Origin: Raillietiella orientalis
Taxonomy: Eukaryota
Reading direction: 5' to 3'
DNA length: 64,000 nt
Assembly (NCBI GenBank): GCA_036172245.1
Contig: JAYWIR010000001.1
Location: 5,952,001-6,016,000 of the forward strand
This document shows, in pieces, positions 1,304 to 51,480 of this stretch. The notes under the pieces are model-generated. The model saw only the letters and a program-made list of their open reading frames with translations, had not been told where the DNA came from and searched no databases. Every line of letters starts with the position of its first letter. The stretch's first letter is position 1. Position numbers and translations under genes: made by a program.

Positions 1304-2140
1304 GAACAAGTGACTGGTGTCGAATGGGGGACGCTGGAAAACAAAGCGGCGTACGGACTGACTTCATGCTCGCTTGCCCGAAGGCATTCCACTCCGGTCT
1401 CCGTGCACACCGGGTCCAGGGCGAAGGCGAACGTGCACCGCAAGGCCGATCGAAGCAGTAGCGATCCCTTCGACAAGAGCCCCCACAAGGGGACCGGGAT
1501 GAGTCGCCTGTACAAGACGGAGCTGTGCCGCCCCTACGAAGAGAACGGCATATGCAAGTACGGAGAGAAATGCCAGTTCGCCCACGGTCGGCTCGAGCTG
1601 CGGGCGCTGCCTCGCCACCACAAATACAAGACGGAACTGTGCCGCTCGTACCACACCAAGGGGTTCTGCAACTACGGTTCCCGCTGCCACTTCGTGCACA
1701 GCGGTCTCGACCTGACCCCTCTCCTGCTACGAGGAGGCTGCGCACCCACGCCTCCCACCCCCATACCCCCGCCTCGCGGTGGCCTGAACTCGGTCGGCAG
1801 CTCTCCCGGTCCCACGCCTCCGCTCGGCAACTCGCCCGCACCCACCCCCGTCCTCTCCAGCAAGGTCTTCCTCATGGAGGACTCGTCCTCCTCCTCCTCC
1901 TCCTCCTGTTCCTCTTCTTCCTCCTCTTCCTGTTCCTCTTCTTCCTCCTCCTCTTCTTCCTCCTCCTCCTCCTCCTCCTCTTGCTCTTCCTCCTCCTCCT
2001 CCTACCCGGGAGTGTACGCGACGGCCGGCGGTTCCACCATGATCGTGGAGATGGCTGCTGGTCAGATGGAAGCGTTGTGCCTTAAGGAGTCTTTTGGCCC
2101 CGGGATCCGCCTGCCCATCTTCAGCAAGCTCTGCAGCTAA
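1304..2140 (+). CDS. ZFP36: TIS11/tristetraprolin (ZFP36L-like) tandem CCCH zinc-finger ARE-binding protein, main coding exon; first exon probably upstream of the window
   Basis: Two CX8CX5CX3H fingers with lead-in motifs ([52 protein letters not shown]). N-terminal RRHS motif. C-terminal NOT1-binding motif RLPIFSKL before TAA (2138-2140). Strong polypyrimidine acceptor ...ttttccccatgcag| ends at 1303; an in-frame ATG at 1298 also exists. Confidence 0.95.
1883..2002 (+). repeat. (TCC/TCT)n coding microsatellite giving a ~40-residue poly-Ser tract with interspersed Cys in ZFP36
   Basis: Directly visible: tcgtcctcctcc...tcctgttcctcttcttcc..., translating [20 protein letters not shown]... Confidence 0.9.
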
Positions 2141-2342
2141 GAGAGAGGCGCTGCTGGGTTGCGGTTTCAAGCTGTCTTTCGTAATCTTGTGATGAGTGAA
2201 CAAACTCTTTTGTTTGCCGACGAATTCGAAACCTCCCCCCTCCCTTTCCACCCCGACCGCCCCCTGCTCCTCGTCCTCCCTCCCTCCCCTCCCCCCTCCA
2301 AAAAGGAAACCCCGAGGACGAACCCGCACCGCCGTAGACCTC

Positions 2343-2628
2343 TTATTTAAACGCTGTCAGGAAGAAAGGATTTTGGTTGCCTCTTCGTTTGCTTTGTCCC
2401 TGATTCGTCAGACGGGTCGTGTGCGGCGGCGTGTTGGCGCCGGCCGGGTGCCACCCCCCACGCGGAGAAGCACGCCTGCGCTGCCGAGGGCAGCACATCC
2501 AGTGTGAAGAAAGTATTTATTATTATTATTATATTGGGATGATTGTGCGACTGGTGCACCTGTAGTAGTGGTCATAGCTGTATCTATTTTTATATTGAGC
2601 CATGCGTGGACCTGATGCTGAGAATAAA
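2343..2628 (+). promoter_or_regulatory. ZFP36 3'UTR AU-rich elements and polyadenylation signal
   Basis: TTATTTA at 2343-2349; TATTTAT at 2514-2520 followed by (TAT)n; AT-rich tatctatttttatatt at ~2581-2596; AATAAA at 2623-2628, all in otherwise GC-rich DNA. Confidence 0.7.
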
Positions 2629-5600
2629 GACGAATTTGCTCCTGTGGATAGCCAGTTTTCATTTCTTCGGCGAAGGCCCGCAGCAACTGGCTGCAGCAGC
2701 GTCCTTCCGCCGGACCGAGGGAAATCTCGCCTTCTGCTTCTGTGCGTTTCCGTCCTCTATGCGGGGAAGGGGGGGGGGGGGGGCGCGCGCGCGCGCGTAC
2801 CCTCTCTCTCTCTCTCTCACTTTCTCAAAGACGACCCGGTTCGTGCTCCGTCGGCAAAAGGAGGTGCCGGTCCTCGCAGCCGAGTCCCCGCGGAAGGGGT
2901 AGAAATGGGGGTGGGGGGGGGGAGAGAGAGAGAAAGAAGGTTGCTGCCCTTCTGCGCGCGCGCTTCTTCTCTACTCGTCGTCCGCCGCCGTTCCCGCGGC
3001 GCCGAGACGGGACGGCCCCGGCGTCGGGGGGAACGGGCGACGCCTCCTCGTCAGCTTTTGCAGTGGGCGGTGGTGGAGACGATGGTGCCTTCGTTCTGAT
3101 GGTAGCTGCAGTCGGTGGGGTTCGGCTGGCGCCTCGCACGCGGCAGCGGCGGCGGCCGCCGGCCGTCTGGCTGGAGAGGTCGGTCGCGTAGAAAGTTGCT
3201 CTCACCCGGTCCGCCTGGGCCGCTTTGGTGCCGGCGGCGACGGCAAAAGTGAAAGTGACGCATCCCAGATTTCCAGTGAGCGAGTGAACGAGCGAGCGGG
3301 CACGTGCATCCGCCTTCTCCGCACTCTCTCCCTACCCCTGGCCTAAGCTTCCCTCCCTTCCTCGACCCTGCCAGTGCCCTGAGCCACACGGAGGGGGGGG
3401 GGGGGGGGGAAGGACCTTGTGCGTCACCACCGCCATTTTGTTTCACTTCATTTTATTTTATTTATTTATTTTTTGCGCTTGTTCCTTCGAATGACAGACA
3501 CTCCCCCCTCCTCTTCCTCCTCCCTCTGCTGCCCGAAGGTAGCAACGGCACTTTTTTGCCCTCTTGCTGCACCCGCGGGCACGCGGCCCCCTGCGATCGA
3601 GAGGCAGCGCTAGCAGTGGTCGGCGGCGGAGTTCGCGACTTTGGAGCGTTGCAGCCACTCGTAGAACGGCCTCTTAGCTTCTTCCGCGTCCGTGGCCCCG
3701 GAGGATGGAGGGCCTGTCCCATCGAGTCTTCCGAGGCGAGCTGGCCCTCGGGCGGAGTACACCTCCCCCCTGTCGTAGTCTTTGGGTGGGCGCTCGCTTC
3801 GCGAGAGTGGCGTCTTCCGGTGTCGGCCTCTTCGTTGCGGTGAGCTTCGCGAGAGGGCGGAAGCGGTGCGCGTTCCCCTTCCGCGTGCGCCTCGCATTTG
3901 TGGGCCGCGGGGGTGCGCGGGCGCAACCGAGCGATGGGCAGCGACGGCTTGCTCCAGCCACCCCATTGGTGGTCGTGCGGGCGAACGGAGCGCGCAGCGT
4001 GTGCGTACGAAGAGCTCTCCGCATACTACTTCTCCCTCCGCCCCCTCCACAAAGGTGGAGGGTAGGGTAGGTGCAGGCCGTCCCTGAGGGCAGCGGGAAG
4101 GGCGGTGACCGTTTCGTCTCTCCCCCACCCAACCCGTTTGGACGGTGGGGTCCTCTTGCTGGGGCGTGCATAGGGAGAGGAGGAAAGGCGCGCGCGGCGG
4201 CAGACTGCACACCCTCCGTTGGTGCGGCGGACGGGCAATTGGACGTGGTGGCCTATTGCGCCATCGCTGCCACAGTTTCCCCGCGCACCTGTTGTGCCGG
4301 CGACCCCTGCGCCCGGCGGCAAGCAGGCTGCGAAGGCCCTGCCCCGCTCGAGGGAGGCGGCGCCAGCTGCCGTCTGCTTGACGACTGAGCCTTTGCCGGC
4401 GGCGGTGCAGTGCTGCTGCTGATGGTGAGGGTGGTGGTACCCTCCTCAGCGAGCACCGCGGGGGACGGAAGCGGATGCCGCCGCCAGCAGCCTTCCGTCC
4501 GAGGCCGCAGGCGGCGATACTAGCTAGTGGGCGCGCCCGCCGCAGAGACGACGCGACGCGGGCGTACAGAGCCGCGTGCGCGCGCTCCTCGCTCGATCGT
4601 CCGTGCCCCGGGCCCGACGCCCGGGAGAGTGGCAGCGGGCCACTGCCGTCGCCTCTCCCCGTTGCTATGCGATCGGCAGCGGATAATATTAGCGCCGCTT
4701 CCCGCGCGCGCTGATTGGCGAGCTGCTGGGAAGAGGCGTGCGCCTGCGCGCATGCTACGCACTTGGCAGCCCGTCCGGGAACTTCCCGGACGGGCTGCGG
4801 GAACGTCTGCCTCCGAGGACACACATCACACGTACGCCCTACCCCATTCCTCTTTCCCCTTGCTCCCCTTCGGAAACGACCGTCCGGGTAGAACGTCCCA
4901 CCGGCCGCCAGTGGTTCCTTTTCCTGATCCCGCCTTTCGCCCCAGGCGGCGCTGCGAGCGCGCAGGTGAGCGGTTGGGGCCTCCCACGAGAAGGTAGTGG
5001 CCGCCCCCCCTCTTTGCCACGCGCGGAAATGCGGTTTTCCTCGGCTGCCAGCCGAAGAGCTGCTGCTTTTTTTTTTTTTTTTTTTCCACTTTTTTTTTCC
5101 TTTTTTTTTTGACAGCACAATTTCAACGATTGCAGTTTCCACAACATGGGAAGGAAGGAACGAAAGGGGGAGAGGGGTTCGAGGGGGCTGCCCTGAAAAA
5201 AAAAAGGACGAAGATAAGAAATTCGGGTGGCTCACGGTTCCCCCGTTCGACCCCGGCTCTGCGGGAAGTGATCGCTCGTCCGCGGCATCGGTTCTTTCTT
5301 GGGACTTTCCCCCCTCCCGCGCTCTCCCGGACGGTGTTCGCCGCGCCCCTCCGAGGCAGATGAAGTGTCCCTTCGTTGGGACTCGACCGTTGTCGCCCGG
5401 AAGCTCGCCCGCAGCACCATCCTAGCACGGAGGGGAAAAGGAAGGACTGCCCCTCAACGGGCCGCGGCATCGCCCATCGCTGCGCTCGTGCCCGTGAGAG
5501 GAGCCACCGGCGTTGGCGGGCACTTTTCTGTAAAAGAGGCGTAGGGAACGCACCCTTGTCGCGCCGAAGGCGGGCGGCAAGGGAGTCCCATCTGCCTTAC

Positions 5601-8600
5601 GTCACGCCCTTAGGGGACATCGTTTCACGGAGGAAGAGGGGGAAGGGAAGAGAAGCGCGTTGCAGGTCCTTCCGGGGCGTGCCTCGCCACCCGACCTCAG
5701 GGGAGGGGAGGAGGAGGGGGGGACGCCCCCTACGTCGCTCCCCCTCGAGGGCAAGATGGTACGGCCTTAAAGATCGGCGGTCACCCTGCCGTGACCTCCC
5801 ATCACCGTTGCCGAGTCCCGCGCCGGCGTAGGGACGAGCAAGCATCGTCCCACGACGCGGTGTTTGCACGCACGGCCTCTGCCCGTTTTCGAGCGAGCTA
5901 GCGCGTTGTGGCGCTTCCGGCCCAAGGAAGACGGAGGAGGGAGGTCCGGAGCGGAGGGCGGTGGTGCCCCTTGACGCGGGAAGGGCGTACCCAGCTCCAC
6001 CACGGCGCGGGAGGGAAGAACGCCGCGGTCCAGCGGTTCTCCCCGTCGCAGTGACGGCGAACCGGATCTTCGCCGCACGGGCTCTCGCGCCTTCCCGGCG
6101 TGACCAAAGTCCGACGCAAGTCCATTCCGTTGCCGCGAAACGCGATCCCGGGCGCCCGTTTTCCTAGCGAATCCGGTTGCAGTTGCACCTCGGAACGGAG
6201 GAGCGTCGCAAATACAAACAAAACAAAACGAAACGAAAAAAGTGGTGGCTGGAGGGGGGAGAGGGATCATCCGTGTCCCCTTCTCCTCAGCTTTTTTTTT
6301 TTTTTTTCTTCTTTTCTTTTCTTTTGCGCGCAGGCGCTCCAGCTCCGCCCGTCTGTGTCCCGGGCACGGCAAGCGGTGCTGAGCTCCTAACGACGAGGAG
6401 CGCGCCACCGAGCCCTCTGGAGGATGGCGACCTTTCGCGCGCGTTGCTGCCTCCCCCCTCCCCGTCTCCCCCGGACGCAGCGCGCGCGCGTACGCCTCCT
6501 GACTTGGACGGCTTGGCGGGGCTTCCTTCCGTCAGGACTGCTAGGCGGCGGGGATACGTGACCTTCCGGCGACGCGGGCGGTGTACTGCCTCACTGCTGC
6601 CGGCTGGGAAAGGCTTGGGTTGCCGAGGCGCGAGAGGCGTCGCTTTGCCGGGTTGCCAAGGGAAGGAGGATCGGCTGCGCCGCTCCGCAAACGTATTTGG
6701 ATTGTTGCGTCGCCGGCGCCTAGCAGGCAGGAAGGGGGTCGTCGCGGAAACGTGGAAGAGCGGATGCGACACCTAGCGGCTTGGCCGTTGCCGTGGATTT
6801 TGCCGCGTCTCGCAACAATGCGCGGTCTATTTTTAATCGATGCTGGTTTTCCGTCCCCCCCCCCTCCTTATTCTTTTGTTTGCTTGCGCATGCGTGCGGT
6901 TGGTTGCTCATCGACTTGAAGCTTTTTTGTGTGTTGCCGCCGCCGCTGCCGCTACTGCTACTGCTGCTGCTGCTGCTGCTGTTCTTCCTCCCGGCCAGAA
7001 GGGGCAGAAATTTATGGATCCCACGGTTCTTGCGTCTCCGTGAAATAGGAAAAATCGGATGTTCGCTTGCGACTTCGCTCTCCACGCGCGCCCCTTATCG
7101 CAAGGATGCGCTGCGATCGAACTGGGCTGGCTGCTTTCGGTTGGTTGCTGCGCGACTTGGTGCATTTGGTTTGCTTCCTCGTAGCTGGCGTTGCTGAAGG
7201 CAGGCAGGCATTCTTGCGGAGCCCTGGCGGTGACGCAACTGTACGCGACCAATGGTCGACGAGCGCTCGCAAGCACGTTTGGCCCGCGTTCTCTCCGAAG
7301 GTCATCATCCCTCGAAGATGATTTCCAGATGAAACTGAAACTCCTAGGAGAAGAGACCGGATTTCCTCGGAAAAGTGCTGCTCCGATTTTGTACAGAAAG
7401 TTTCTTTTTTGTGCGTGTGTGTGTATGTGTGTGTGTGTGTGTTTTCCCTTCCGTTTGCGCGTTCGGGCTCTCCGGAATCACGTGATTTCCCGGCGCATCG
7501 CGTGACGCTCCATGCCAGAACGCGCTCTGGTGCCGCCCCCCTCCTCGACCGCTGTTCACGCGGTTTTCCGAGAATTCTGCGCAGCGGTTGCGCCCTCTCT
7601 CTCCGCTGCTGCATGCTTGCCGGAGCAGATGGATGGATGGCGATGATGACTCATGAGGAGAAGAGCGCGCAGCTCCGCAAGCCATCGGTGCGATGGAGAA
7701 GCAGCACCAGCGGCGGCGGCGGCGGCAGCAGCAGCAGCAACCGGGAGGAAGGAGGGAAGGAACGCTTGGTTTCTCGTCGGAGGACTCGGCCTCAGAGAGT
7801 CCCGCCCCAAGAACGAGGGCCTTCCCCAAAGGCGTCGCCGGAGATGGGCGCGCGCTCCCAGGATGCCGGCCAGCCGACAGGGCCTGCCCTCCGCAGGGTG
7901 GGGCCGAACTGGCGGAACACCCCCTTCCTGCCCACATTTCTTTGGGCCTGTTGCCCCGCCCCCAATGCAGCCGTCATAACTGCTGTTGCTGCTCTTCTCG
8001 TACGCTGCCGCAGTCCTGGCGACGGGGCGGATCCGTGGTGACGCCTGGCAGCGGTCTGGTCCTCTCGCAGTGGCCCGGAAATGCCGAACGCCTGGCACGG
8101 TGGTCTCTCATGGGTTGGTGGCGGAAGGAAGCGCCGGCACCGCATTTCCGCCCGCATGCTTTTCGGTGGCGCCACCCTCTCCACTCGCATCCTTTTAGTC
8201 CCTCCCCCTGCTTTCCTGAAAACGCAAGGCGATGCCAGAGGTCAGCAAGCGGGAGCGTCCTGTCTCCTGGGGCGCTCCTCTCCCTGGGAGAGAACGGCCC
8301 TTCCTGGGCGTGGGCTGGGGTGGTAGAGCGTCTTCGCTCAGCGAGCGGTCGGCGCTTTCGTGCGCTTCGACCAGGCCGCAGGAGGAGGACGGTGGTCATC
8401 TCCGCCGGCGCCCACTTCCCATCTCCCATTTTGTGCCAATGGGCGCAGCAAGGGATGCCACATCAGGGGCCTCTTTGGACTCGCCCTTCCCCTCCCTCTC
8501 GCCATGGTCGCGCTTCTGCGTCCCGGCGTCTCAAAGCGGTGCCATTCTGCCCCTCGCCCTTTGGCCTGCCTTCCACCCACGCTGCTACCCTGGCGCTCGG

Positions 8601-10644
8601 CTGTTGCCTCCCTTCAGTCCGTTTCTCTCCCTCCTGCAATGCTCCGGAAGATCTAGCCCCATCTCCACGGTGGGCTGTCGTCTTCACCCAGCCCCCCTCC
8701 TCTCTTCTCCCCTCCCACCTTTTTTTGTCCTGGGGACCTTGATCCCTTCTCGAGGTGGTGGCGCCGCCAGGCGGTCGCTCCTCCCTCGTCTAGGGTAGAG
8801 CGCCGCCTCTCGCCGCTGGCCCGTTCTCCCCCCCCCCCTCCTCTGTTAGGTCCCCCAGACTTGCACCCAGGGAACTGCCGTGGCTGGTGTCTCCCATCCG
8901 CGGCGGTGCCCTTTCGAGAGGGCCCCCTCTGGCAGCTTCTCACCAGGGCGTGGCGCTGGATCCTCCGGGGACTCCCCTGAGCATGGGGAGGGCGCTCGTC
9001 CGGAAGGCGGCGGGCGGACGCTGGGTCCTCCTGCCTTCGTCTCCTCTGGGTCTCCAAGAGCGGGGCAAGGGCGTGCTCCTGGGTCTATCGGGCGCTTGGG
9101 CGGTGCCCCTTGGAAGCCGAGGAAACTGCTCAATGCACGCGATCCCCGCGCATTCACCCTCTGCCGCCCCCCATTTTCCACCCCATCGTCTCGTGTCCTG
9201 GAAGGATGGGGGTTGCCACCCGGGTACGCCCTTGGGAAGGGTGGGGGTGGGGACGGCAATCACGCGGCTTAGTAGACTCCGCGCCATCCCTGTGCCATGC
9301 TGCCGGCGCTCCTGGAACCCGGAGCAGTTGCTCGCGCCGAGTATGTGTGTGTGTGTTTGGGGGGGGGGTAGCCTGGAGGCGGGCAGATAGGACGGCACGA
9401 CGGGGTCGGGTGGGGCACCTCCTCTCCGTGCATTCCTTCCTCTCCACCCTTGGAGAGCCTCCGGCGCGGCTCGAAGTCGAACGGGCCCTCGGCCGAGGCT
9501 CCAGAGGTGGCGTTGCGGTCGTCCTTCAACCTGCGGAGGAGCGCGAGACCCTGCGCCCGATTCTCTTGCTACCCGGAACTGCGCCCGTCGTGACCTCCTG
9601 CGGGCAGCAGGACCTTGCGGTGTGGCGTGGCTAGTCGACCCCATCATGCACCTCCTCTGGGGGTTGCGCTCAACGCGCGCATCGCCGGCGGCGCGCCGAT
9701 CGAGGCGGACGCTCCTGCGAACGTCCCGGGGTCGAATTCTGTGGAGTTGCGGGGGATGGCGAGGGTGCCCAGCGACCTCTTCTGGCGCGCGGGTGGGACC
9801 GCTTCCACTCGCCCCATCGAGGGGTTCGGGCAGACCATCCGCGAGGAGCGCTCCGCGTCCGGTGGCGGGTGAAGTCCCGCTGCCATGCTTGCGGGTCGCG
9901 CCACCGGCTCTGCCGCGCACCGCAAGGGGCTTCCCGCCCCTTCGACTTGGATGATCGTTCGGATGCTGCTGAAGGAGGATACGGACGCTGGTGCGTGCGC
10001 GTCCCGCGCAGCCGGAGCCTCCTCGTTGCTTCCGAAGCAGAGGTCACCGGCGACCCCTCCCACCAGTCTCGAGACGGGACGAAGAAGCGGGCGGAAGAGG
10101 CACTGCGGCGATGGTCGCCGCGGGAACCCCTCCAGCGGTGCCCGGGACTGCTGCGGTCGCCTCTAGTCGGGTGTCCAGCGAGGCGAGCGGAGGCGGAAGC
10201 AGCCCTTCCCTGATCGCTCCCGCCGGAGCCGCCGCCGTTCCGCGTGCACTGTGCGGAGGAGCCCTGTACGGTACCAAGGCGAAATGGAACGTCCGGCGAA
10301 TTTCCCGCTTTCCTGGGAGGATTCCCATGTCCGCATCAGCCCCGGGATCGCCAGAATCAGGACGAATGAGGAAAAGACGACAACACCACCCAAAAAAAAA
10401 AAAAAAAGTGAAATGTAAATAAATAAATGGAAAACGACTGGCACGACTGCGGATTTCATTGTGCACGCGGGTTTTGTCTTCGATTCCATCTTTTTTTCCT
10501 TTTTTTTTTTTTTAATTCTTCCTGCACGTATCGAACAAACAAGTATCCAATTGGAAGTTGCAATTGTTTCAAGGTCACCGTACGAAGACACCCATCCTGG
10601 CTTTGCTACTTCGCATTAAAAATACGACTCCGTAACCAAGTTTA

Positions 10645-10647
10645 TGT

Positions 10648-10710
<63 letters not shown>

Positions 10711-10753
10711 AGGGAGAGAAAGGGGAGAGAGTGTACGTGTGTGTGTGTGTGTG
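10645..10753. repeat. Compound (GT)n(GA)n microsatellite
   Basis: Directly visible dinucleotide runs. Confidence 0.95.
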
Positions 10754-16018: not shown

Positions 16019-16845
16019 GTCAGGATGCGCACTGGTCGACCTCTGCCCGCTCCGGCGGCGATGGGGCAGGGATAGCTCCTTTACCCTTCTTCCTCAGACC
16101 GCGTCATCTTTCTCTGCCCCTCCTCCCCCCATCCTCGGTTTGGGGAAGGGGCGGCGGTGTCAAAACAGCGTCATGGCTACCAGGAAAACGCGCAGCATCC
16201 CGTGGGGAGCTGCAGCAGGGACGCGAGCGGCCGCCTTTGCCACCAAAGCCCGCATCCCCGCGCGCGGCAGCGGACCCCTCCGGACTGAGGCGGGCGAGGG
16301 TGCGGGAAAGGGCAGCGTCTGTTGGAGCTATGGGGCCGTCAGCCTCCGGTTCCCCCGCTTGCTGAGCCAGCGCCGCGGAGGGCTCGCGACGGACATACCC
16401 GAGCGAGGACCACCCCAGGAGCTTCCTGGAAACCGCAGAAGGGAGTCCTGTGGGGTGCTCCCTGCCCTTCTCCCAAGAACTGGGGGTCCTGCAGTGTGAG
16501 GAGGCGCGTCCGACCCGGCTCCGCGCGCTCGCCCTTATCGGCTCTTCCTCCACCCCTCCTCCCCCTTTGTTTTTGTTTTGGCGGCCTGCAGCCGGCCGGC
16601 CGGCCGTTTGCTGGTCACGTGTTGGGCGGTTATCAGCCGAGCGTCTCAGCTGATGCTGCCGTGCTTGACCCCCCCTCCTCCTCCTCCTCCCTTCCCTCCT
16701 CGTCCGGCCGGCCGCGCGCTTCTTCCTGCGTAGTCGAGCTTGTCAGGATGCGCGCTGGTCGACCTCTGCACGTTCCGGCGGCGATGGGACAGGGAGCTCC
16801 TTCACCCTTCCTCAGACCACGTCTCCTTTCTCTGCTCCCCCCCTC
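16019..16845 (+). repeat. Pair of ~100-bp diverged direct repeats (~16019-16125 and ~16742-16845)
   Basis: gtcaggatgcgcactggtcgacctctgcccgctccggcggcgatggggcaggga... versus gtcaggatgcgcgctggtcgacctctgcacgttccggcggcgatgggacaggga... Confidence 0.85.
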
Positions 16846-30645: not shown

Positions 30646-30745
30646 TTTATTTGGTCTCAGAAATGGATGTCCTGAGGTACAGCTGGCTGCGTCCTCATCG
30701 CCGGCAAGCTGGGACCACTCGCCCCGAAGACCTGTTTTCTGCTGT
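30646..30745 (-). CDS. RAD51B: Candidate RAD51B terminal exon (DSRKQVFGASGPSLPAMRTQPAVPQDIHF*) plus polyA signal
   Basis: Acceptor ttttttattctcttccag; phase-1 compatible; TGA at 30659-30657; AATAAA 5 nt downstream (30651-30646). No protein homology support (this tail is variable in RAD51B). Confidence 0.6.
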
Positions 30746-33700: not shown

Positions 33701-36700
33701 GAGGGAGGGAAGGGGGAGGGGGACTGACTACCAGGGGTCCGAGGGCGCCTCGCGTCGTAAACGTCGACGATGCCAGGGGAAACCCCAATCGCGAGCAGCG
33801 CAGGGGTCAGGCGGCTCCTGAGGTGCGAGCCGACCCGTCTCCCCGCGCTTGGCAGTGCGCCCGTAAGGAATCTCCCCGCCCGCTCCTGACCGACTGCTAT
33901 CCCGAGACTACCTGCCGTCCCGGCGGAGCGAAGTTCCGTCGGAGGACGTCTGCAAACGAGCACCCCCCCCCCATTCCTCTCAAAAATGGCAGGCCATAAG
34001 TGCCGTCCCGACGCGTGTAGGGCCGCCCGCCCGTGCGCACCGGAGACGGTCCCGGGGAGCTCCGCGGCGCGCGTGCATGCGCCCTGCAGGGACCTCCGCG
34101 GAGGCTTCCTTGGGACCCGGCACTGCACCTTCCTAGGCCGGGTGGGAGAATGCAGGGGGAGGGGACACGCGGTCCGACCCCGGGACCTCACGACAGGGGA
34201 TCCTCATACGCTGATCCCTGAGCACAACCGCCGCCGCCCCTGCCCGCGCGCTTCCCCGCAACGAAGATCGGAGGAGGAGGAGGAGGAGCCCCGTCGGGCA
34301 GCAGAGAGGGTGCAAGTTCGCGGCGCGTGCACGGAGGACTTTTTTTTTTCGGAAACTCACCGCTCATCTCGATCCCCGAGGGTTCGATGCGGCACAGGAA
34401 CAACGCACTTCCAGCAACAGGTGACTTGGTTACCAGCAGCTGCAAAAAAAAAAAGAAAAAAACAAGAATTTACTGGGCAAGACACGGAAAGCTCGGACGC
34501 ACCGCAGGCCCCCGTACAATGCGTAGCGCTAGCGCGCCAACAATGGCCGACCGCCGCCACCTGGCAAACCTTGCCGCTGCCTAGCAACTGCTCCCGATGA
34601 GTCGCGACCGTCAGGCGTTCGCGCCGCGAAGAACCAATCATGCAAAGAACGCGTACCTCAACGACTCCGCTTCTTCTGCCGAAAGTTGCGCGCCTCCCGT
34701 GTGTGAAGCAGGTGCGCACCGAAACGCGCGGGGAGGGGAGGAATAGGAGGAGGAGGGGAAGGGAGCGGCTGGAACCACCGAAAGAAAAAGTGAGCGCTCA
34801 CGTGGTGGCGGCGGCGGCGGCGCGCTCCCGGAACTCCCTAGCCACGCGAACGCTCAAAGGAGGACTTCGCGGGTGGGCTGCTGCTGCAGCAGGAGCGGGG
34901 CAGCAGTGAACCTCCGAAGCCACTCGTCCGCCCGTCACTCGCACTTCCCCGTGAGTGCCTCCTCCGCACGCAGCGTGCGGGAAGCGGGGTCACGGGAAGA
35001 GCATCCGCTGACCGCCGGGGGAGGGAAGAAGTGGGACCGCTCGCCACGGACCCAGAGGTCCGCATCTCGGTGACGTCAGCAGCGCGCTCCGGCCCGACGT
35101 TGCCGGCTGCGTTGCGAGCCGTTGGCTGCTACGCCCCAACGGAGGCGCCCGCGCGAGCGCAGAGGTGTGGATGGACCGCCTCGGATAGGAGATCTCCGCG
35201 TGAGCTCCCTGCCAGCAGCCGCGGAGCCGTTCGGGAAGGGGGCAGCTGGTGAGCCGTCGTCACCACCTCAGCAGAAGGACGGATGGCGAGGCATCGCTCG
35301 CTGGCTCTTGCTCGTGGCAGGAGGCTTCCCCACCACCACCACCACCACCTTCGGGAGTACCGCGGTTTCCCTGGGCAACACGCAGCCCCGCCGGCGCCCA
35401 CGTCGGAGCAGACCCCTCCGTCGGGAGGCGAAGGAGCGCCCACGCGCTTTCCCTCCCGCCGCGGTCTCCCGCTCCGCGTGGGCCCACGCGACTCTGGACA
35501 AATTGCAGCCCGGAAGGTCGCGGCGTCCCTCCCGTTCGGGGAAGCTGGGAGGAGCGTCTCGCGCGATGCAATATTTTATAGAGCTATAATTAAGTTAGCC
35601 AATAATCAAATAGGTGAATTTCATACGTGCTACTTAGTCCATTCTGCCTTCGACGGGCGCCCTCGTAGCCGCCGAGAGGATACGGCGGACCGTGTCTGGT
35701 TAGCGCGCGTTTCACGTGTGCGCGAGCCGTGGGAGTGGAAAGCGGACCGGCCAATGGCCCCAGGCAGATCGTTTTTCGAGGGAGGTAGCTGTTCCTCCAG
35801 CACCCTTGGTACTCCGCCTACATGTCCTTCCGGGCCTGAGATCATGCGGCGGACCCGTCCGGACCGGCTCCCCCGTGTCGTTCCCGAACGCTCTCGTCCA
35901 GTCCGTGCTTTTGATCGGATTGCCGGCGTGACGGCACCTCTTCCCGCGTTTCCGTCGGAGCGCGTTCCCGGCCGGTGGTTCCCACCGTCCCGGCCGCACT
36001 GCAACCCGACCGGGAGGACTTCCGCTGCCAGGGAGAGGAAGCCAGGCAAACAGCCAACGCCAAGGTCGCGCCGCCGCGCTCTCTGGGACTCCACCTCTGC
36101 AGAGAGTCAGACGGGCCGCCGCCGCCGCGTCTCGTGGAGCGCACTTTCCTCCCCACGCAACCGAGCGCGGACCTTATTCCTTCCCGGCAGAGATGACCCA
36201 AACGAGCGGGAGCACCGGAAGCAAGCCGCCAGCAGGACTCGGGTCCCTCCCCAAAGATCCGGGCGACTCCTCATCCCGGTCACCCCGCACCGGGTCGCTC
36301 CGCACGAAGTCGTCGATCAGGGACGCGTCTCCCTCCGCCGGCGCACTCGCTCTCCGAGGTTCGTCAGGGTGGCTCGAAAGGGGGGGGTGGCGAAGAGGTG
36401 GCGTGGAGGTGGGCGCGGTGACGACAGCCTCGCCCTTGCAGCTGGCGACACCAACATTCGAAGACAGCGCGCTCGGAACGACGGCGAACCCGACCAGACG
36501 TCCACGATGGTGCGGAGCGGGCAGTGTCGCTTAGGAGGCTCTCCGGAGAAGGGCTGTGTTTGGGGGGGGGGGAGGGGGCAAAACCTTCGAAAGGCGGCGG
36601 CAGGCGCGCCCGTCCTTCGCTCCTCCTCGCGCGCGCAGGCTTCCCGCTTCGCCTCCCCCCCCCATCCGTGTGCTGGCCGCTCTTCGTCACGGTCCGGTGT

Positions 36701-39700
36701 TCAGGGCCCCTTCCCGCTGTACCCGACGCGACGAACCTTTCCCTTCCCCCGCGCGCCGAGGTTCCGGAAATGCCCAGGAAAGATGAAAGCCAACGCCGAG
36801 GACCCCTGCGAAGGCCCCATCGCGGATCACCGGCTTTCGCACACCCAAAACGCCTGCACGGCCTTCCGCAGGAAAAGCTGTGCGGGCGGATCGGTCGCTC
36901 CTGCGTCGCGAGGGCGGCCCCAGGCCTTCGACCGGGCAATGGAAGGGAATACCTTCCGGCGTCCTTCACACAATCCAGGGACTCGGGGATGATGGAAATC
37001 CTCTGGGGGTTCTCTCGTTTTCGCTCCTTTCCTTCCAGCCTTTTTTTTTTTCCGAGTTTTTTTTTTTGGTTTGTTGAAGAGCTGCTTAAGAACCACTCGT
37101 CTCCTTGAGGAGGGAAGGGGGGGCGGCCACGAAGCTCATTGGTACTGTCCACGCCACCCGAGGGTGCGTGTTAACTGTCCAAGCTATAGGGCGCAACCCC
37201 GCAGGGAGCACCCTATGAATCCAGGAATTCTGCGGAGGAACAGTCCGTTCCTCTCACGTTTCGGGGAGGGAGAACCCCGAGAAGGGAACCCGGACAGGAT
37301 CCGCTCCTGGAATTTCCTCTCCTCCACAAGGAAACCGCGCCTTGTTTCTTCCTCCGCCTCCGAGAACCCCGGAGGGAGCATCGCGCCTTCTGACCCTTTG
37401 GAGAGGCGACCCTCTGAGAGGAGGTATCATCTAGCTGCATGGCACGCGATGGGGCGGCTCCTTTTTTTTTTTTTTTTTTGCAACACAACCGGAGGGGAAT
37501 CTCGAAGGACTCCCTTATTCCTGGAAAGACTTCGGAGGATCGACTTGCAATGTCAGCAGGTCAACGGGGGGCACCCGGTTCTCGCCAGTACCGCCGACGC
37601 GGGCCGCATGGCCTGTATCCTGAATCCAGGGGCCTGGGTCGGTTTCGATGACGGTCCACCTCTTCTTCCGACGCCCTGGGTTGCACCGTCCTCCTGCGTC
37701 AACCCTTGAGGGTCACGCAGCAGCTGTCGCGGTGATCTCATTCCGATGCCGAACAGTGGAACTCCTGGCTGCACCTCCGTCTCCGAAACCGCTTGCTCGA
37801 CGTGTCTCGCGAAGCTCCGGGGTCTCTCCCCCACCTATTCTCATTCCCATTCAATCGCCTTTCTTCTGCGGTCGGGTTTCAACTTCGTACCACACTGTGG
37901 AACAGGTGGCAAATTGGCGCGTGACCCACTCGGAGGGGGATCGCAAGGTTCTCTTCCGCTCGTCACGGCAAGAAGCGAATGGAAAGGGGGGGATAAGGTA
38001 ATGGGCAATTTACGTGGCCGTCCATCATGCACCGGACACCTTCCATTCCGGTCACGCGAGCACACCAACTGGCTTTGAGTAGGTTGTGCATCGAGAGGGG
38101 GCACGCGGACAGGAGCGGATTCGATGCTCTCCTGAACTTCGTTTCCAGACACTTTCGGTGCACCCGCGTCTTTTCAAACTGTGGAGCGCACCTCGAACGA
38201 ATTGCTGAGGGCATTCGCAGCTCCAGCCCCATTTTCGTGGAATTCCAAAGCGTCCCCCCACCCACCCGTCCCTTCCCGTTACTCGGAGTTGCCGCAATGC
38301 AAAACCGTAAACTTTCACTTTGTGCGATGACCCCCCACCCCTGCCTATTCGAAGCACACGACGGCGCCTCCTTCAACAGCATTCACGGAGGGAAGGAGGA
38401 AGCCTTTGACTGTTGCCACGGAGCAGAAAATCAGTCCCGACTGTCACTGGAAAAGCACTCCCGGATGCTCAAACATCTTCCTTCCTCTCGCGTGGCCTTC
38501 GAATGGAATTCGGGTCCAGTTCGTAGAAGAAAAAAAAAAAGTCATCTCTTTCGCGGTGAGTACCACCAGTACGGCCCATTTTTACGTCGTGCGATCGACT
38601 CTTCCGTGCCGAGGCGCTCGACGACCACCAGCGCGCGGAAAAAAGAAGCAGAGTGGCTCGATTTGAGACGTCAGACCGAACAGGCCCCCTCGCCGCTTAA
38701 CCCGGTTCTCCCGGCCCTCCGTTCCGGAGCGCAAGGAGCTTTCGCAAAAACCGCAACTGCCTCGCGAGGGCATTCGTTGGATCGCGGGCCACGCGGTGGC
38801 GAGGGGGTGGAGGGTCGCTGCACTCCGATTTCGCGAGAGCGTTTCCCGCCGCCGCCGCGCCCACGGCTTCTTTCGCGAAAGAGGTCTTCCGCGCGCACGG
38901 TACTGAAATCGAGGAACCCTTCCGAGGTTGCTGCGAGGAGTCGGGCGCAGCATCGGTCGGGATCTTCGCCAGCGCTTGCAACTTTCGTGCTCCAATCGGA
39001 CCCGTCGAAAGGACCGGAAGATCGGATCGCATGCCGAACCCACGCAAACCATTCAGAAGCAGCGACCTCGATTAGGGGAAGAAAAAAGAAAGAAAAAAGG
39101 AAGCTGTATTTTAGTCGCAGGCGGACCACAGCTTGGTTTCATTAGCTCGACCCTCACGAAAACCCCATAATTTTGTCGATTTTTAGCCCCTTGAAGAAAC
39201 TTGACCTCGGCGAGAGCGCATCCAAGTACCCCATCGATTGTCAACTGGCGGGGACATCGCATCTCTTGGGAAAAAGTCGCAGAATGAGTCCATCTTCGCT
39301 TGCTGTTGGTTCCTTCCGATATCAACCCTTTCGAAACCCGGTGTGGCTGCGGTCGCGATGCTGGCTCGGGGGGCCTCAGAGCACCGACGAGGAAGTGACG
39401 GGGATGGTTTCGTGATGCACCCATGACACCTCTGATGACTCTGGGCCGTCGGCGGGTCACTCGAAGTGCCCGAACGCTCTGTGTGCAAATTTCCTTTCTC
39501 TATGCAGCTTCGCCGAGGTTCCCGCTTTGCGCATCGGTTTGAGGGCTTGCCGGCCGCATGTGCGTTGGCAGCAGACTGAGCCGTGCTCACGCGTTTTTCT
39601 AGTTCGCTGTCGACCGTAGCCACACCGTCAGTTGACTGGCCGAAGACCCGACAGTCCGGGTTGCGTGCTGCAAGCTCCCAGATGTTCCCCTTTGTGGAGT

Positions 39701-42700
39701 GGAGAGTTCGACACCACAAGAGAAACCACTTCCGTGTCAAAGAGTTACTCTTGGTGACGAGACCAAACAACGCTCGAATCGTTACACGGAAAAATCACAG
39801 CAGGCAAACAAAAAAAAAAAAAAAGGAAGGGGGGGGAGAAGGTCCAGCACGGACACCGATTCAAGGTTAATAATATTTAGGCACTTGAAAGAATTCCGAG
39901 CCGTTATACCCCACGAAGGACACCATAGGGCACGTTTTTTACAGCGGAGGATTCCGGCGGCACCAATCATCGAAACCTAAACAAAGTAAGAGCACAAGTC
40001 CCAGTGGTTTGAAATGGGAACTGCTTGCAAAAGGGCAGCTGAAACCGTCTTCACGTCCCTTCGCTAGCCACGTCGTGTGGGAACGTCTACACGACACGGC
40101 GAACGAAGCTGCGAGGGGAGCCCAATTCAGATAGTAGCAAACGCATCTCGACTTTTGCTGATGGACGGGGGCAAAATGCACAATCCGGGGCAGCACTTTC
40201 GTAATACTTCCAGTAACTCGTATGCCGAAAGAATAAAAACATGAAACGCGGATACGGAATGCTTTCAGTAAGTGGGCGATGTTGCGAACAGCATCGATAC
40301 ACCTTGGAGCCTCCTGAGCAAAACTTACTGGAATTTGAAAAGAAAAGAAATAAGGCAATACCACGTATGCCCTCGAAATGTGCCCATCTGCTGTAGGTGG
40401 TAAAAGGAAATCCGAAGCGCTTCATGGAGATGAAGATGTTTTCGTAGCACCTGTGAGACGAACCGCTCGCTGAAAAGTCCGAATAACGAAGATGCATGCG
40501 TGGACAGGGATGCAGGAGGTGTTCTATGACGTTTCGGGGTGGGGGGAGGGGCGAGGTGGGGTGGAAGACGCGAAACGAAAAGGCAAGCGAAGTCCACCTG
40601 TCGAGAAAAGGCCGCACTCACGAACCGTCCATCCCTACGGGGCATCGTGGTCATGTATGTATCTCGCCTTTCGATTAGGCCATCCTTGAAATTCGGAATG
40701 CGCTCGGCGCAAGTTGTAAGCCATAAATTGAGTCACGTTGAGTGGCGCCAACCCGTACGGTGTTTTACATTGTAAAAAGGTGTGCACGGCTCACGAGCCA
40801 TCATGGGAAGTAAACAGAATCGTTCGCACTGCTGGGATTTCTTCGGAGCTTCCCGCGTCGGAGGAAGGGGAGAAAAAAAAAAAAAAAAAAGCCTCAGTGC
40901 CCGGAAAAGTCTCGCCCCATCTGTTGCTTGAAGACAACTCAAGTGACCGACATGCGGAAATTTGGACTCCACAACCCGCTGATTACACGAACGGGATGAA
41001 AACGATGGATGTGCCACGTACGTAGTCGCAGGAATGCGCAACACCCAATCCTCTTTACGTGCCTCCTCCCTTTCACAACAACAGCTCCCCTTCATCCCTC
41101 AATAGCAAACACATCCATTTCTGGCAACGTGAAAAGAGGATTCTTTTTGCCTTGGTGAGATCACGTCAGCAGTAAAGCGCACGCACACCTCCGCGAAAAA
41201 TCGAAATGGCTCGACCCAAGCTCAAAAGTTCCAACAGGATTTTTTTTTTTTTTTGAGAAAAATCGTTGACATGGTTTCCGGAGATGATGATAGGAGGCTG
41301 CAGGAAAGCATCTTGCCACGGGCTGCCGCGCGCTCCGCGCCTTTTTTGCACGCGGCGCGCCGCGTTTGGTGCTGCGGACGGAGGCGCGCCAGCAGCACCG
41401 AACGGTTCGCCCGGCCAGCAAGAAACACGGGAAGAGCACACAGCTCAGGGAGGCAAGGAAGACAGTAGCGGCACACTTCCCACTGCAATTCAGCTTCCCT
41501 GCTCTTCTCTGCAGGAGGAGAACAGCAGCAGCTTCCGCTTGGCGCCCCCAAACCAAACCCACTGCCGGGCAGGGAGGGCTGACACACACACACACTCATT
41601 TGTGCAGCCATCGCAAAGAAACTCAACGAAAGGACTGCAAGGACTGTATTTGCTTCTCGAAGTAAAATTGCTCGTGGAATTCGATTCACGGTGCACCCCG
41701 ATTTAAGAGTTCAGCACCTATAATGGTTTCGTTCTGACCTGTGTACGATTGACCGCTCGCTAGCAATTGCATGTGGTAAAATGAAATCAACTGTTAACCT
41801 GGTAGTACATGAAGTACGTTGTGATAAGTTTACCTGCTGCATGGTACTTGAAACTTGATTGATGCTACTGCATTTTCGGAAGCACCACGTACACACACAC
41901 ATTCGTCTTTACATAATGCCTTTTTTATCGATTCCAATAAGGTGCTTGCTGTCTTAATTGCTTGCCAATTTTAAACCACGAAATGAATTCACTATTTTTT
42001 ACCATGTACTATTTTCCAGGAATTCTCTCTGTTCACAGTACTCAGAAATGTTATCAACTGTCTCGAGCAACATACTAGACAACCTACACAGCTTACTGTG
42101 TGTGCTTACTGTAATGATATTTGAACCCACAGAGCTTGATTTAAGCACATCAAAAGCATTGTGCAAATGAATTACAATCATGAAGCCATCAGAAGACATT
42201 ACAATAATCGAAACACGGGAGATACGTACACTTTGAACCCTACCGATAGTTGAGTTCATGATTATTCTTGTTCTAGTAATTAACTATTAGCATTCAATCA
42301 ATTCCTATTACTTACAAAATGCACCATTGGGCGCATTGATAAGAGTGAAAATAATTTAAAACCCACACGCACACACACACACTGACAACTGATTTCACAG
42401 CCTTCATGCTTTCAACATGCATCATTGCAATGTGACTGTTTGCAGGATTGAAAAATTTGGTACAATTTTACTAGTTACACAAGGATCCTAAAGCCCTACC
42501 TGTCGATCTTGAGCAGTTTCTCCATATTGCAAAATAATCCTAGTATTAATGCAATGACTCCATGTATTTCCCAAGGCTGGTGTTACATCCCAGTGACTAT
42601 CATCCACCTTCCCCTAAAACCGAAATTGGTAGTCAAGCCAGAAATTTTGAGCTTATTGTGCACTGCATACACATGAACTTGTAGGGCCCAAACTGTGTAC

Positions 42701-43847
42701 AACTGGTGGCTTACTTATTACTTGATTTGTACCTACAATCTAAAGAGCAGTCAGAAATGAAAACTTTCAACATAAATATTACTGGGATATTAAGCCACTT
42801 TGCTAAAGCTTTCAATGTATGTGCTTCGTTAAGAAGATGCTGTGCAGAATGTATGTGATCTTTCAACAGGTGAACATCCATTTCTCTTCTCAAGAGAGAA
42901 GTTAAAGAATCAAGAATTATCAACCTGGTTTGTTTCTCAATCAAAAAACTTTCTAAACTAGCAATGCTGAAAAAAAGGTTATTCACTGATATGTTATGAG
43001 GGGACTCAACTCAATGGAACAAATCTTACAAACTATCTATCATGAAAAGTATTCTAAATGCTTGCATCTCTGATCACAATCAAAGCAAATAAAACACAAA
43101 AATTACAAATACTTACTAAGCTCGTAAACTTTCCATATTATTTGCCTGACAGACTAATATACTTTCACAAAGCTTTTTCAGTTGCTCATTTGTACTAAAC
43201 CATTGTGGAAATCGCAGTCCAGCTATCTCCACTAACCTAAATTAAAAGATGACACAAATGCAAGCTGTACATATTAGATAAGTACCTCCTGGCTGAGAAG
43301 CAAGCACCTGAATCTATGAATAATACACTGCCCCCTAGTCCTCCTTCTTTTTCAGGCAACATGGCACTTATGCAAAGCATAAGACAAAGTTGTGTTTTCC
43401 CTCCTCCTGAGGGACCAACAATTTCTGTGAGAGTACCAGCCATTATTCCTCCTTTTAAATGATCATCGACTGGCAAAAGAGTTGTTCGTACCATCAATTT
43501 TTTTTTTTTTTTCAAAGCAAGGGTCTAAAGTGTTATATTGGATATCATAAATTGCCATAGAAATCTGCAGCCTTCAAAAATTCTTACACTTACACTTGTG
43601 AATTTTGGTGCAATCAGGGCTGATACGCTGATCAAATTCTTCTTTATTTCTTGCAAAGTGTTCGGACATATCTTCAGTAAATCTGGGTAGGAACAAGTCA
43701 GTAGATCCTACGAAAATTAAATATGATGATACATGCCTCATATTGAATACATACTTCAATGTTATTTATACCAGATTTTTTCAACCTTTGCAAGAGCTTC
43801 TCATCTAAATGGCACAACTGCAAACCAAAGCTTTTTTCACTATTCAT
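30657..43847 (-). CDS. RAD51B: DNA repair protein RAD51 homolog 2 (RAD51B), predicted 9 coding exons, ~366 aa
   Basis: Exons (minus): 43847-43755, 43707-43594, 43524-43286, 43236-43117, 42966-42783, 42739-42671, 42613-42500, 34439-34361, 30745-30657; all GT-AG and phase-consistent. Motifs: LTEIVGPSGGGKTQLC (Walker A), GGLGGSVLFIDSGACFSARRLVEIA, LIILDSLTSLLRRE (Walker B), IVGTNQV, PALGNTWSHCINTRIILQY, LLVTKSPVA. These match RAD51B as recalled. The last exon is less certain. Confidence 0.9.
34361..34439 (-). CDS. RAD51B: RAD51B distal penultimate exon (LLVTKSPVAGSALFLCRIEPSGIEMS-G)
   Basis: Very strong acceptor (poly-T then gcag) and donor gtgagt; 79 nt, phase 0 to 1; aligns with the recalled human segment ILIAKSPLAPFTSFVYTIKEEGLVLQ that follows ...RRQ. 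Confidence 0.88.
37195..37290 (+). repeat. Dispersed repeat fragment, second copy at ~47560-47655
   Basis: 19-bp identity caccctatgaatccaggaa (37209-37227 and 47577-47595), followed by shared ggaggaa...gttcctctcacg...ggaggga...ccga. Confidence 0.7.
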
Positions 43848-51332: not shown

Positions 51333-51480
51333 GTCGCAGGTCCTCAATACTGTACAGGTCACAGGTCTTCAAAACCGTATACGTCGCAGGTCTTCAAAAC
51401 CGTATACGTCGCAGGTCTTCAAAACCGTATACGTCGCAGGTCTTCAAAACCGTATACGTCGCAGGTCTTCAATGCCGTAT
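51333..51480 (+). repeat. Minisatellite, ~6 copies of 25-bp unit GTCGCAGGTCTTCAAAACCGTATAC
   Basis: Head-to-tail units starting 51333, 51358, 51383, 51408, 51433, 51458; central copies identical, flanking copies degenerate. Confidence 0.95.

Follow-up and report, generated by a model that had tools for sequence, protein, structure and literature searches.

The closest described systems are genomic regulatory blocks, which are said to go back to Kikuta in 2007. In such blocks and in ancestral microsyntenic pairs, a regulator lies beside an unrelated housekeeping bystander whose long introns face the regulator, and the trans-dev class was assigned with Gene Ontology, according to Irimia et al. 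(2012; PMC3514665). Neither of the two genes considered below is named in the main text of that study (PMC3514665), and the pair was not found together with synteny terms in the literature searched. The resemblance lies in the pairing of a regulator with an unrelated neighbor and in long introns of that neighbor which face the regulator; the difference is that the target here would be an RNA-binding protein and not a classic transcription factor, and the locus would be at most another case of the known genomic regulatory block kind.

The other system of reference is the human locus 14q24.1, where RAD51B and ZFP36L1 presumably stand tail to tail in convergent orientation, at a scale that we take to be hundreds of kb. 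Capture Hi-C connects an enhancer region in a human RAD51B intron to the ZFP36L1 promoter (PMC4674669), and for rs2588809 and rs999737 the gene targeted in capture Hi-C is ZFP36L1 and not RAD51B (PMC5847529). These two variants are placed in RAD51B introns 7 and 10, rs999737 being the one in intron 10 (PMC4858276). Taken together, these sources put introns 7 and 10 of human RAD51B in contact with the ZFP36L1 promoter.

The same two gene families face each other in Raillietiella orientalis, within a stretch of 64,000 nucleotides that was analyzed as a whole (hereafter the window). The features of the locus are as follows:

1304..2140, + strand: main coding exon of a TIS11/ZFP36L-family gene, ending in a TAA stop at 2138-2140 (Pfam, alignment, profile, period-3)
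2141..2646, + strand: 3′ UTR (probable) of the ZFP36-like gene; AATAAA at 2623-2628 (sequence and poly(A) signal scan)
2647..30629, no strand: intergenic block between the convergent 3′ ends (63% GC, CpG observed/expected 1.02, unique sequence)
30630..30745, - strand: probable terminal exon of RAD51B (signals alone: acceptor ...TTCTCTTCCAG, stop, AATAAA)
30746..34360, - strand: probable RAD51B intron 8 (3615 nt, GTGAGT...CCAG, 66% GC; position and phase of human intron 10)
34361..34439, - strand: RAD51B exon 8 (79 nt, 26 codons plus 1 base; profile match and splice signals)
34440..42499, - strand: RAD51B intron 7 (8060 nt, phase 0, GTAGGG...TTGCAG; homologue of human intron 9)
42500..43847, - strand: compact 5′ part of RAD51B, exons 1-7 (translation, Pfam, PDB matches, splice model)

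The ZFP36 family consists of inducible regulators that bind the motif UAUUUAU and carry an RLPIF motif for binding CNOT1. Base 1304, which directly follows a pyrimidine tract and CAG, opens an open reading frame with two zf-CCCH fingers (PF00642 twice, E 5.9e-19 in Pfam) and 2373 homologues, those named being animal TIS11/ZFP36L1/L2 proteins. The two C-x8-C-x5-C-x3-H fingers, the (R/K)YKTEL lead-ins and the fixed 18-residue linker that mark TTP/TIS11/ZFP36 proteins are all present. In an alignment with 23 TIS11/ZFP36L proteins, RRHS, DRSxS, both fingers and the C-terminal RLPIF are held in common, and the invariant or nearly invariant columns YKTELC, CKYG.KCQFAHG, KYKTE and C.YG.RCHF.H are found in the window protein without exception. 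Its C-terminal motif, RLPIFSKL, aligns with the RLPIF or RLPVF of 17 other sequences, the protein scores 240 bits on the family profile, and its main exon gives the strongest period-3 signal of the window (9.9). The probable 3′ UTR contains an AU-rich stretch with UAUUUAU (2514-2535), i.e., the binding motif of the family itself. No match to the profile positions of the N-terminal exon-1 peptide (MSTAL..S..YD type) occurs anywhere in the window; exon 1 may lie to the left of it, or the gene may start at the in-frame ATG at 1298, just 5′ of the main exon, and the missing peptide is without effect on family membership.

On the opposite strand, RAD51B begins with an ATG whose A is at 43847, and its compact 5′ part takes up only ~1.35 kb, with introns of 47, 69, 49, 150, 43, and 108 nt. 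This part matches Pfam Rad51 (E 8.2e-15) and has the RecA/Rad51-type ATPase core with its Walker A, G.(S/P)G.GKTQ, as GPSGGGKTQ aligned to human GPPGCGKTQ. Compared with solved paralogues, one exon scores 67.2 bits with human RAD51B, 60.5 with XRCC3 and 44 with RAD51C, and a second exon scores 33.4 bits with human RAD51B vs. 17.1 with XRCC3. On a RAD51B profile, the spliced eight-exon model from the window reaches 309 bits over profile positions 7-323 (285 bits without exon 8); all seven of its introns are GT..AG and it has no internal stop. On a profile built from a 31-sequence alignment out of the same 150-protein hit list, human RAD51B reaches 505-507 bits and the other paralogues at most 225. 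The model is colinear over the full length, including the C-terminal KSP...G(I/L) strands, and by sequence comparison the gene is the RAD51B orthologue, nearer to RAD51B than to RAD51, DMC1, RAD51C, RAD51D, XRCC2, or XRCC3. Both gene assignments of an earlier sequence-only reading, ZFP36 on the + strand at 1304 and RAD51B on the - strand at 43847, are right, the former by its fingers and family alignment and the latter by its best PDB match, human RAD51B, and the score of its spliced model.

Exon 8 is well supported at 34439-34361. It carries the motif KSPVA....F...I...GI, has a pyrimidine tract and CAG ahead of it and GTGAGT behind it, and matches profile positions 299-329 (9.9 bits, i-E 0.034) in colinear order with the other RAD51B exons; the best of 100 shuffled intervals scored 8.2 bits, short of that value. 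Within the spliced model it contributes 24 bits, and its acceptor is one of only three stringent acceptor sites on the same strand in 42 kb. The last exon probably starts at 30745, as indicated by its signals: a relaxed acceptor scan from 34.36 to 20 kb yielded five candidates, among which only 30745 has a poly(A) signal within 100 nt. From there a phase-1 frame of 29 codons runs to a TGA at 30659-30657, followed by AATAAA at 30651-30646; no homology was detectable for the tail, and the nine-exon model encodes 349 aa. The two 3′-most introns (8060 and probably 3615 nt) are the only long ones of the gene, vs. 43-150 nt in the other six. The first of the two 3′ exons is found 8.1 kb out and the second another 3.6 kb beyond it, both in GC-rich DNA without CpG depletion, which extends for 28 kb more up to the 3′ end of the ZFP36-like gene.

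These long introns interrupt RAD51B where human introns 9 and 10 do, and both point toward the ZFP36-like gene. Exon 8 corresponds to human exon 10 (I320-Q345 plus G), with equal length (79 nt) and equal intron phases (0 and 1). The human junction after Q319 (c.957/958), which matches the 5′ junction of exon 8, is set by an entry of PMC4858276 (Table 1), "c.957+125 intron 9". At the other end, human isoforms split after Q345, and the next residue begins with G in both of these isoforms. The locus resembles the human one in its two gene families, in their convergence, presumed for human, in the long introns of the 3′ half of RAD51B and in the ILIAKSP...GLVLQ exon between introns 9 and 10. It differs in scale, with introns of 8.1 and 3.6 kb and a spacer of 28 kb; in the part matching human intron 7, which is long and bears risk variants there but is compact here; and in that promoter contacts have been measured in human, whereas the present locus is known from sequence alone.

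Between the two genes, the distance from poly(A) to poly(A) (2646 to 30630) is 27,985 nt, a value that depends on exon 8 and on the probable terminal exon of RAD51B. The sequence-only reading had described a tail-to-tail pair separated by a non-coding block of ~28 kb with no recognizable gene, and strands, gene models and spacer length all agree with that description. No Pfam match at E ≤ 0.001 was obtained for any of 393 stop-to-stop six-frame ORFs of at least 70 aa between 1.7 and 41.7 kb, and scans of the interval for Rfam families and tRNAs returned none. One ORF matched DUF4519 below threshold (18 bits vs. a cut-off of 27). A self-BLAST of the whole window disclosed only four weak internal repeats, two of them within the block. 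No third gene was seen between the ZFP36-like gene and RAD51B, although genes made of short exons could escape the screen.

It is that last point which gives some room to the alternative that the block hides lineage-specific short-exon proteins or long non-coding RNAs, and that the pair are not true neighbors. The Pfam screen is indeed blind to short exons, having assigned no family to the ORF that contains exon 8 (34191-34469) and having missed most RAD51B exons; moreover, the + strand has a T>A skew over 1-13 kb and an A>T skew over 25-35 kb, suggestive of transcription-like asymmetry beyond the annotated units. Against such genes stand the empty Pfam and Rfam results, a flat period-3 signal within the block (no higher than 2.9 vs. 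9.9 in the ZFP36-like exon, though it is equally flat over the short RAD51B exons), and CpG observed/expected values that nowhere in the block fall below 0.65, whereas the AT-rich gene bodies of the window go as deep as 0.17 within a range of 0.17-0.7; hidden genes accordingly appear quite unlikely. A misjoin of the GC-rich part (1-41 kb) to the AT-rich RAD51B part would account for the abrupt shift near 41.5 kb from ~55-70% GC and CpG observed/expected ~1 to 36% GC and ~0.2, but it is very improbable. Composition alternates in the same manner at 45.3, 55.8, and 62.1 kb, the whole window contains no N, and exon 8, which the protein core needs, sits 8 kb into the GC-rich part, with strand, order and phase all correct; with an exon inside the GC-rich block and no N, one gene spans the two compositional domains, and they are not products of a chimeric assembly.

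In the reading that we tentatively prefer, with a confidence slightly short of even, the ~40-kb GC-rich domain is a ZFP36-like regulatory block that holds the pair together with RAD51B as bystander. The domain would serve the ZFP36-like gene as its downstream regulatory landscape, and a part of this landscape would sit inside the last RAD51B introns. A break between the genes would then cut either RAD51B terminal exons or ZFP36-like enhancers, and the pair would have been retained because such a break harms one gene; the human 14q24 locus is seemingly organized likewise. The interpretation of the sequence-only reading is in part supported: the structural prerequisites of the bystander model that it had proposed are present, and in sharper form than it had described, since the unusually long introns of RAD51B are its 3′ ones and they face the ZFP36-like gene. 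The two genes are adjacent and unrelated in function, and the standing of a ZFP36-type RNA-binding protein as a trans-dev target hinges on the definition applied. A genomic regulatory block would further be expected to have conserved non-coding elements in the spacer and in the introns of the bystander, enhancers in the bystander that act on the target, for which there are human data only, and a linkage retained across distant lineages.

The main competitor is that linkage was kept neutrally or arose by chance, i.e., that an ancestral linkage group was never broken or that the genes were joined independently, with long introns and spacer as neutral GC-rich filler; we hold it to be somewhat less likely than the regulatory reading. 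The argument from compactness on which the sequence-only reading relied, that neighboring genes here are otherwise tightly packed, is true only in part. A second gene-free block, GC-rich and CpG-rich and ~10.5 kb long, occupies 45.3-55.8 kb on the other side of RAD51B, and a further GC-rich gene-free block begins at 62.1 kb, so that such blocks seem to be usual in this region of the genome and nothing particular to the ZFP36 flank; a similar block beyond RAD51B weakens the case for the one between the genes as special. Motifs lend the regulatory reading no help either, CArG boxes being not enriched (1 found vs. 3.15 expected), and chance alone should leave any two animal genomes with some adjacencies in common, a point that was reasoned and not computed. 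To our knowledge, the adjacency is known in two genomes only, this one and the human one, and a TZF gene was found in the flanks of 0 of 27 RAD51B-like metagenomic loci, a count which, with taxa unknown and flanks of at most 10 kb, is uninformative even if it falls on the side of chance. What speaks for regulation rather than drift is that the convergent orientation equals that presumed for human, that the only long RAD51B introns are the two facing the ZFP36-like gene at homologous junctions, and that human contact data show real regulatory entanglement at the locus (PMC4674669, PMC5847529).

By analogy with the human locus, an old regulatory block common to this pair and vertebrates is plausible. 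The stronger form of this proposal, that the RAD51B-ZFP36L block predates the split of this protostome-like animal from vertebrates and that the same two terminal introns (human 9 and 10) have belonged to a ZFP36-family enhancer landscape for more than half a billion years, strikes us as rather unlikely. On that reading, the terminal RAD51B introns would have stayed expanded in a genome whose ordinary introns measure ~50 nt.

Were the pair ancestral and held by regulation, it would be a well-defined addition to the ancient regulatory blocks, at ~40 kb small enough for experimental dissection, and a block of deep conservation with an mRNA-decay regulator, an RNA-binding protein, as its target instead of a transcription factor. 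The view that ZFP36L1 mediates the effect of the human 14q24 risk variants located within RAD51B (breast cancer, rheumatoid arthritis) would gain support too, and there would be an evolutionary reason for disease variants "in RAD51B" to work in this way.

The compositional pattern also invites comparison with the mosaic gene-body methylation of invertebrates, methylation in this window being inferred from CpG depletion only. On the one hand, CpG-depleted AT-rich gene bodies (the 5′ part of RAD51B, with 36% GC and CpG observed/expected 0.24, and a QPCT-like gene at ~0.3) alternate with undepleted DNA, which surrounds inducible or developmental genes here (the ZFP36-like gene, and upstream of SRF). 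On the other hand, the contrast between 36% and 63-66% GC is judged far beyond what CpG decay alone would produce, and the 3′ exons of RAD51B fall in the undepleted part. For annotation, the RAD51B model has a value of its own regardless of how the pair is explained: an automated caller would probably end the gene at 42.5 kb, and the conserved strands of the C terminus would then be missing.

A ZFP36-like gene and RAD51B converge in the window, as had been proposed from the sequence, and the RAD51B model is here lengthened by two 3′ exons. Two kinds of DNA alternate along the composition profile, and the genes and composition classes are arranged as follows.

Genes and composition classes of the window
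1.3-2.1 kb, + strand: tandem CCCH zinc-finger (TZF) gene
42.5-43.85 kb, - strand: Rad51-family gene
Peptidase_M28 matches at 56.5-57.4 kb, C-terminus near 57.44 kb, + strand: glutaminyl-cyclase-like (QPCT-like) gene
59.3-60.3 kb, - strand: SRF-type MADS gene; the MADS box is in two parts, 59799-60320 and 59319-59795
1-41.4 kb, 45.3-55.8 kb and from 62.1 kb: GC-rich blocks, ~47-72% GC (mostly >55%), CpG o/e ~0.65-1.4 (mostly near 1)
41.7-45.3 kb and 55.8-57.6 kb: AT-rich, CpG-depleted stretches, 34-44% GC, CpG o/e 0.17-0.7
Through ~62 kb: further AT-rich, partly CpG-depleted run

The compact part of RAD51B runs from an ATG at 43847 through seven exons down to 42500. Among solved RecA/Rad51 paralogues, human RAD51B is the best match of one of these exons (67 bits vs. 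60 for XRCC3, with RAD51C and RAD51 at 44) and of a second exon (33 bits vs. 17 for XRCC3). Used as a word-based protein query, the Walker exon drew 193 candidates, none of which reached E≤0.001; HMMER, run exhaustively with the same exon, supplied 150 relatives. A profile built from a 31-sequence alignment drawn from that match list scores human RAD51B at 505-507 bits and XRCC3, RAD51C, RAD51, and RAD51D at ≤225 bits, and is therefore RAD51B-specific. Exon 7 ends in ...DRQ followed by GTAGGG, and the AT-rich unit as a whole is devoid of the conserved C-terminal strands of the fold. The modelled exon 3 contains an A15 run (43487-43501, - strand), an unusual slippery homopolymer for a coding exon, which codes for five lysines immediately ahead of the conserved core; an alternative acceptor at 43564 is out of frame.

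A further exon was located with another RAD51B profile, built from the 55 relatives with lengths of 320-400 aa and run against all six-frame ORFs of at least 12 aa in the window. The known exons were recovered in colinear order on the - strand, together with a new match 8 kb downstream, within the GC-rich block (ORF 34191-34469, - strand; 9.9 bits, i-E 0.034), which covers profile positions 299-329 and adjoins the exon 7 match at 266-300. The DNA has the textbook layout of an exon: an acceptor ending in ...TTTTTTTCTTTTTTTTTTTGCAG, 26 codons (LLVTKSPVAGSALFLCRIEPSGIEMS), one G, and then GTGAGT. None of 100 Markov-shuffled copies of 2651-42490 reached 9.9 bits on either strand (maximum 8.2), and the exon 8 acceptor is among the three sites that pass a stringent filter on the - strand in 42 kb. 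Once spliced, the model comprises eight exons (960 nt, 320 aa) with GT..AG at every intron and no internal stop; on the profile it scores 309 bits, against 285 when exon 8 is left out. The 40-aa exon 8 peptide, too short for such a comparison, matched no solved structure. An earlier C-terminal exon candidate in the AT-rich stretch at ~42.2 kb was dropped, the profile having placed the exon at 34.4 kb.

The junctions of this exon can be compared with those of human RAD51B, whose chains read ...SERRQ(319) ILIAKSPLAPFTSFVYTIKEEGLVLQ(345). Table 1 of PMC4858276 assigns c.957+125 to intron 9, and human exon 9 therefore closes, in phase 0, with codon 319; in that paper rs999737 belongs to intron 10 and c.1063 to exon 11. 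The human isoforms part after residue 345, into E... in the 384-aa chain and A... in the 356-aa chain, both codons beginning with G. Together with the c.957/958 boundary taken from that table, this divergence delimits human exon 10 as c.958-1036, i.e., 79 nt made of 26 codons plus one G, starting in phase 0 and ending in phase 1. Exon 8 of the window (34439-34361, 79 nt) has exactly this layout; the 8060-nt intron that precedes it is therefore the counterpart of human intron 9, and the one that follows it that of human intron 10. A multi-exon RAD51B-like gene on the metagenome contig L020 (453-5510) has the same junction before the KSP exon, with a small intron (~220 nt).

Since GTGAGT follows exon 8, one more RAD51B exon is needed. 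A relaxed scan from 34.36 to 20 kb returned five acceptor-like sites, of which only 30745 opens a short frame (29 codons) in the required phase, which closes with TGA at 30659 and is followed by AATAAA at 30651. Judged by these signals and not by homology, the 30745 exon is probably the last of the gene. It would bring the protein to 349 aa, nearly the length of the human chain of 350 aa, set the last intron at 3615 nt, and leave 27,985 nt between the two poly(A) regions, in agreement with the ~28 kb block of the sequence-only reading. The candidate at 25165, a strong acceptor located at the T/A-skew sign change, was ranked below 30745, where a stop and then AATAAA follow; it may represent an alternative 3′ exon.

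The partner gene is filed as a member of the TIS11/ZFP36L family. Its ORF, from 1304, is preceded by a pyrimidine tract and CAG, with an in-frame ATG at 1298, and encodes two zf-CCCH fingers (Pfam, E 5.9e-19). Among its 2373 database relatives are animal proteins that carry the names TIS11, ZFP36L1, and ZFP36L2; identity is ~40-55%, and no relative is near-identical. An alignment with 23 relatives reveals shared RRHS and HRK.DRS.S motifs ahead of the fingers, all invariant finger columns and RLPIF at the C-terminus. A search of the whole window did not detect ZFP36 exon 1, which in other TIS11/ZFP36L members bears a conserved N-terminal peptide. The TZF and QPCT proteins show ~50-58% identity to mainly arthropod and other ecdysozoan homologues, with no close relative. 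The stop codon lies at 2138-2140 and AATAAA at 2623; between them, the probable 3′ UTR contains a UAUUUAU-type AU-rich stretch (2514-2535) which, if bound by the gene's own product, would allow autoregulation. Autoregulation of this kind has been described for vertebrate members of the ZFP36 family.

The absence of any recognisable gene between the pair, noted earlier from the sequence, was borne out by a screen that is not exhaustive: none of the 393 stop-to-stop ORFs of at least 70 aa from 1.7 to 41.7 kb matched Pfam at E≤0.001 (DUF4519 came up once below threshold, at 18 bits vs. a cut-off of 27), and the interval gave no Rfam match and no tRNA with ARAGORN. Period-3 power stays at or below 2.9, against 9.9 in the ZFP36 exon, and the peptides read from the long ORFs are rich in Arg, Pro, Ala, and Gly, as is typical of GC-rich DNA that is non-coding. 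The same ORF and Pfam screen overlooked RAD51B exon 8 and most other RAD51B exons, over which period-3 power is equally flat, and unrecognised genes could have escaped it likewise; set against the empty searches, their presence in the interval is unlikely. Self-comparison of the whole window yielded just four weak repeat pairs, two of them inside the interval, and the block is therefore neither satellite DNA nor a recent duplication. Coding transposons and bacterial contamination are disfavoured because ~50 kb of GC-rich DNA is without a Pfam domain of any kind. One CArG (SRF) box was found vs. 3.15 expected. On the + strand, T exceeds A over 1-13 kb and the opposite holds over 25-35 and 38-48 kb, a sign change that fits convergent transcription or a replication terminus without proving either.

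The extended model bears on whether the interval and the RAD51B 3′ introns might serve as regulatory DNA of the ZFP36-like gene, with RAD51B as a bystander. RAD51B is a housekeeping gene and the ZFP36-like gene a regulator; the only long introns of RAD51B lie at the end facing that regulator, the others being ~50 nt, and they resemble the spacer in composition (63-66% GC, CpG o/e ~1). The 8.1-kb intron is homologous to human intron 9, and the next one, probably 3.6 kb long, to human intron 10. This structure fits the prediction for a genomic regulatory block with a bystander, an already known kind of system. Human RAD51B spans most of a megabase, the greater part of which is its 3′ introns, and human ZFP36L1 and RAD51B are convergent neighbours. 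In human B cells, the promoter of ZFP36L1 is contacted by an enhancer region that lies inside a RAD51B intron (PMC4674669), and breast capture Hi-C assigns the RAD51B SNPs rs2588809 and rs999737, located in introns 7 and 10 (PMC4858276), to ZFP36L1 and not to RAD51B (PMC5847529). A regulatory role for the interval is plausible and concretely testable, an inference we would place somewhat short of an even chance. Counted against it are a second gene-free GC-rich block of ~10.5 kb (45.3-55.8 kb) and another from 62.1 kb, so that the uniformly compact genome assumed in the sequence-only reading is only partly right.

That the pair was instead kept together neutrally or by chance is only slightly less likely. 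To our knowledge, RAD51B/ZFP36-type adjacency is known in just two genomes, this one and human. Scanning metagenome contigs with the RAD51B alignment placed a TZF gene in the stored short flanks of none of 27 loci, whose taxa are unknown and several of which may be other paralogues; the multi-exon RAD51B-like genes of L020 and L027 (1844-3305) have no TZF gene within 4.5-10 kb downstream. The window contains no N over 64 kb, and misassembly of the pairing is very improbable. In the full-text literature searched, RAD51B/RAD51L1 and ZFP36L1 are nowhere named jointly in connection with synteny, microsynteny, gene order, bystanders, or conserved non-coding DNA. Neither gene is named in the main text of Irimia et al. 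(2012; PMC3514665) or of Touceda-Suarez et al. (2020); the pair may already be catalogued in supplementary pair lists such as that of Irimia et al.

The composition boundaries near 41.5, 45.3, 55.8, and 62.1 kb are sharp, and the GC contrast across them (36% vs. 63-66%) is unusually large. Compact gene bodies (the RAD51B 5′ part, the QPCT-like gene) sit in strongly CpG-depleted AT-rich stretches, and the 3′ exons of RAD51B fall in the CpG-undepleted part; the mosaic looks like gene-body methylation, as far as methylation can be read from CpG depletion. The QPCT-like (+) and SRF-type (-) genes are likewise convergent, ~1-2 kb apart, a gap that the sequence-only reading described as within bases. 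Upstream of the RAD51B ATG, 43900-45300 is AT-rich with moderate CpG depletion (o/e 0.5-0.7) and has no Pfam match among ORFs of at least 55 aa; it could hold the promoter together with a + strand gene of short exons that escaped recognition. The 45.3-55.8 kb block has no genuine Pfam match (two sub-threshold, 20-22 bits vs. cut-offs of 23-27); it carries a diverged repeat pair of ~230 nt (47890-48114 and 49183-49409, 69% identity) and a 25-nt tandem repeat in six copies (51328-51480).
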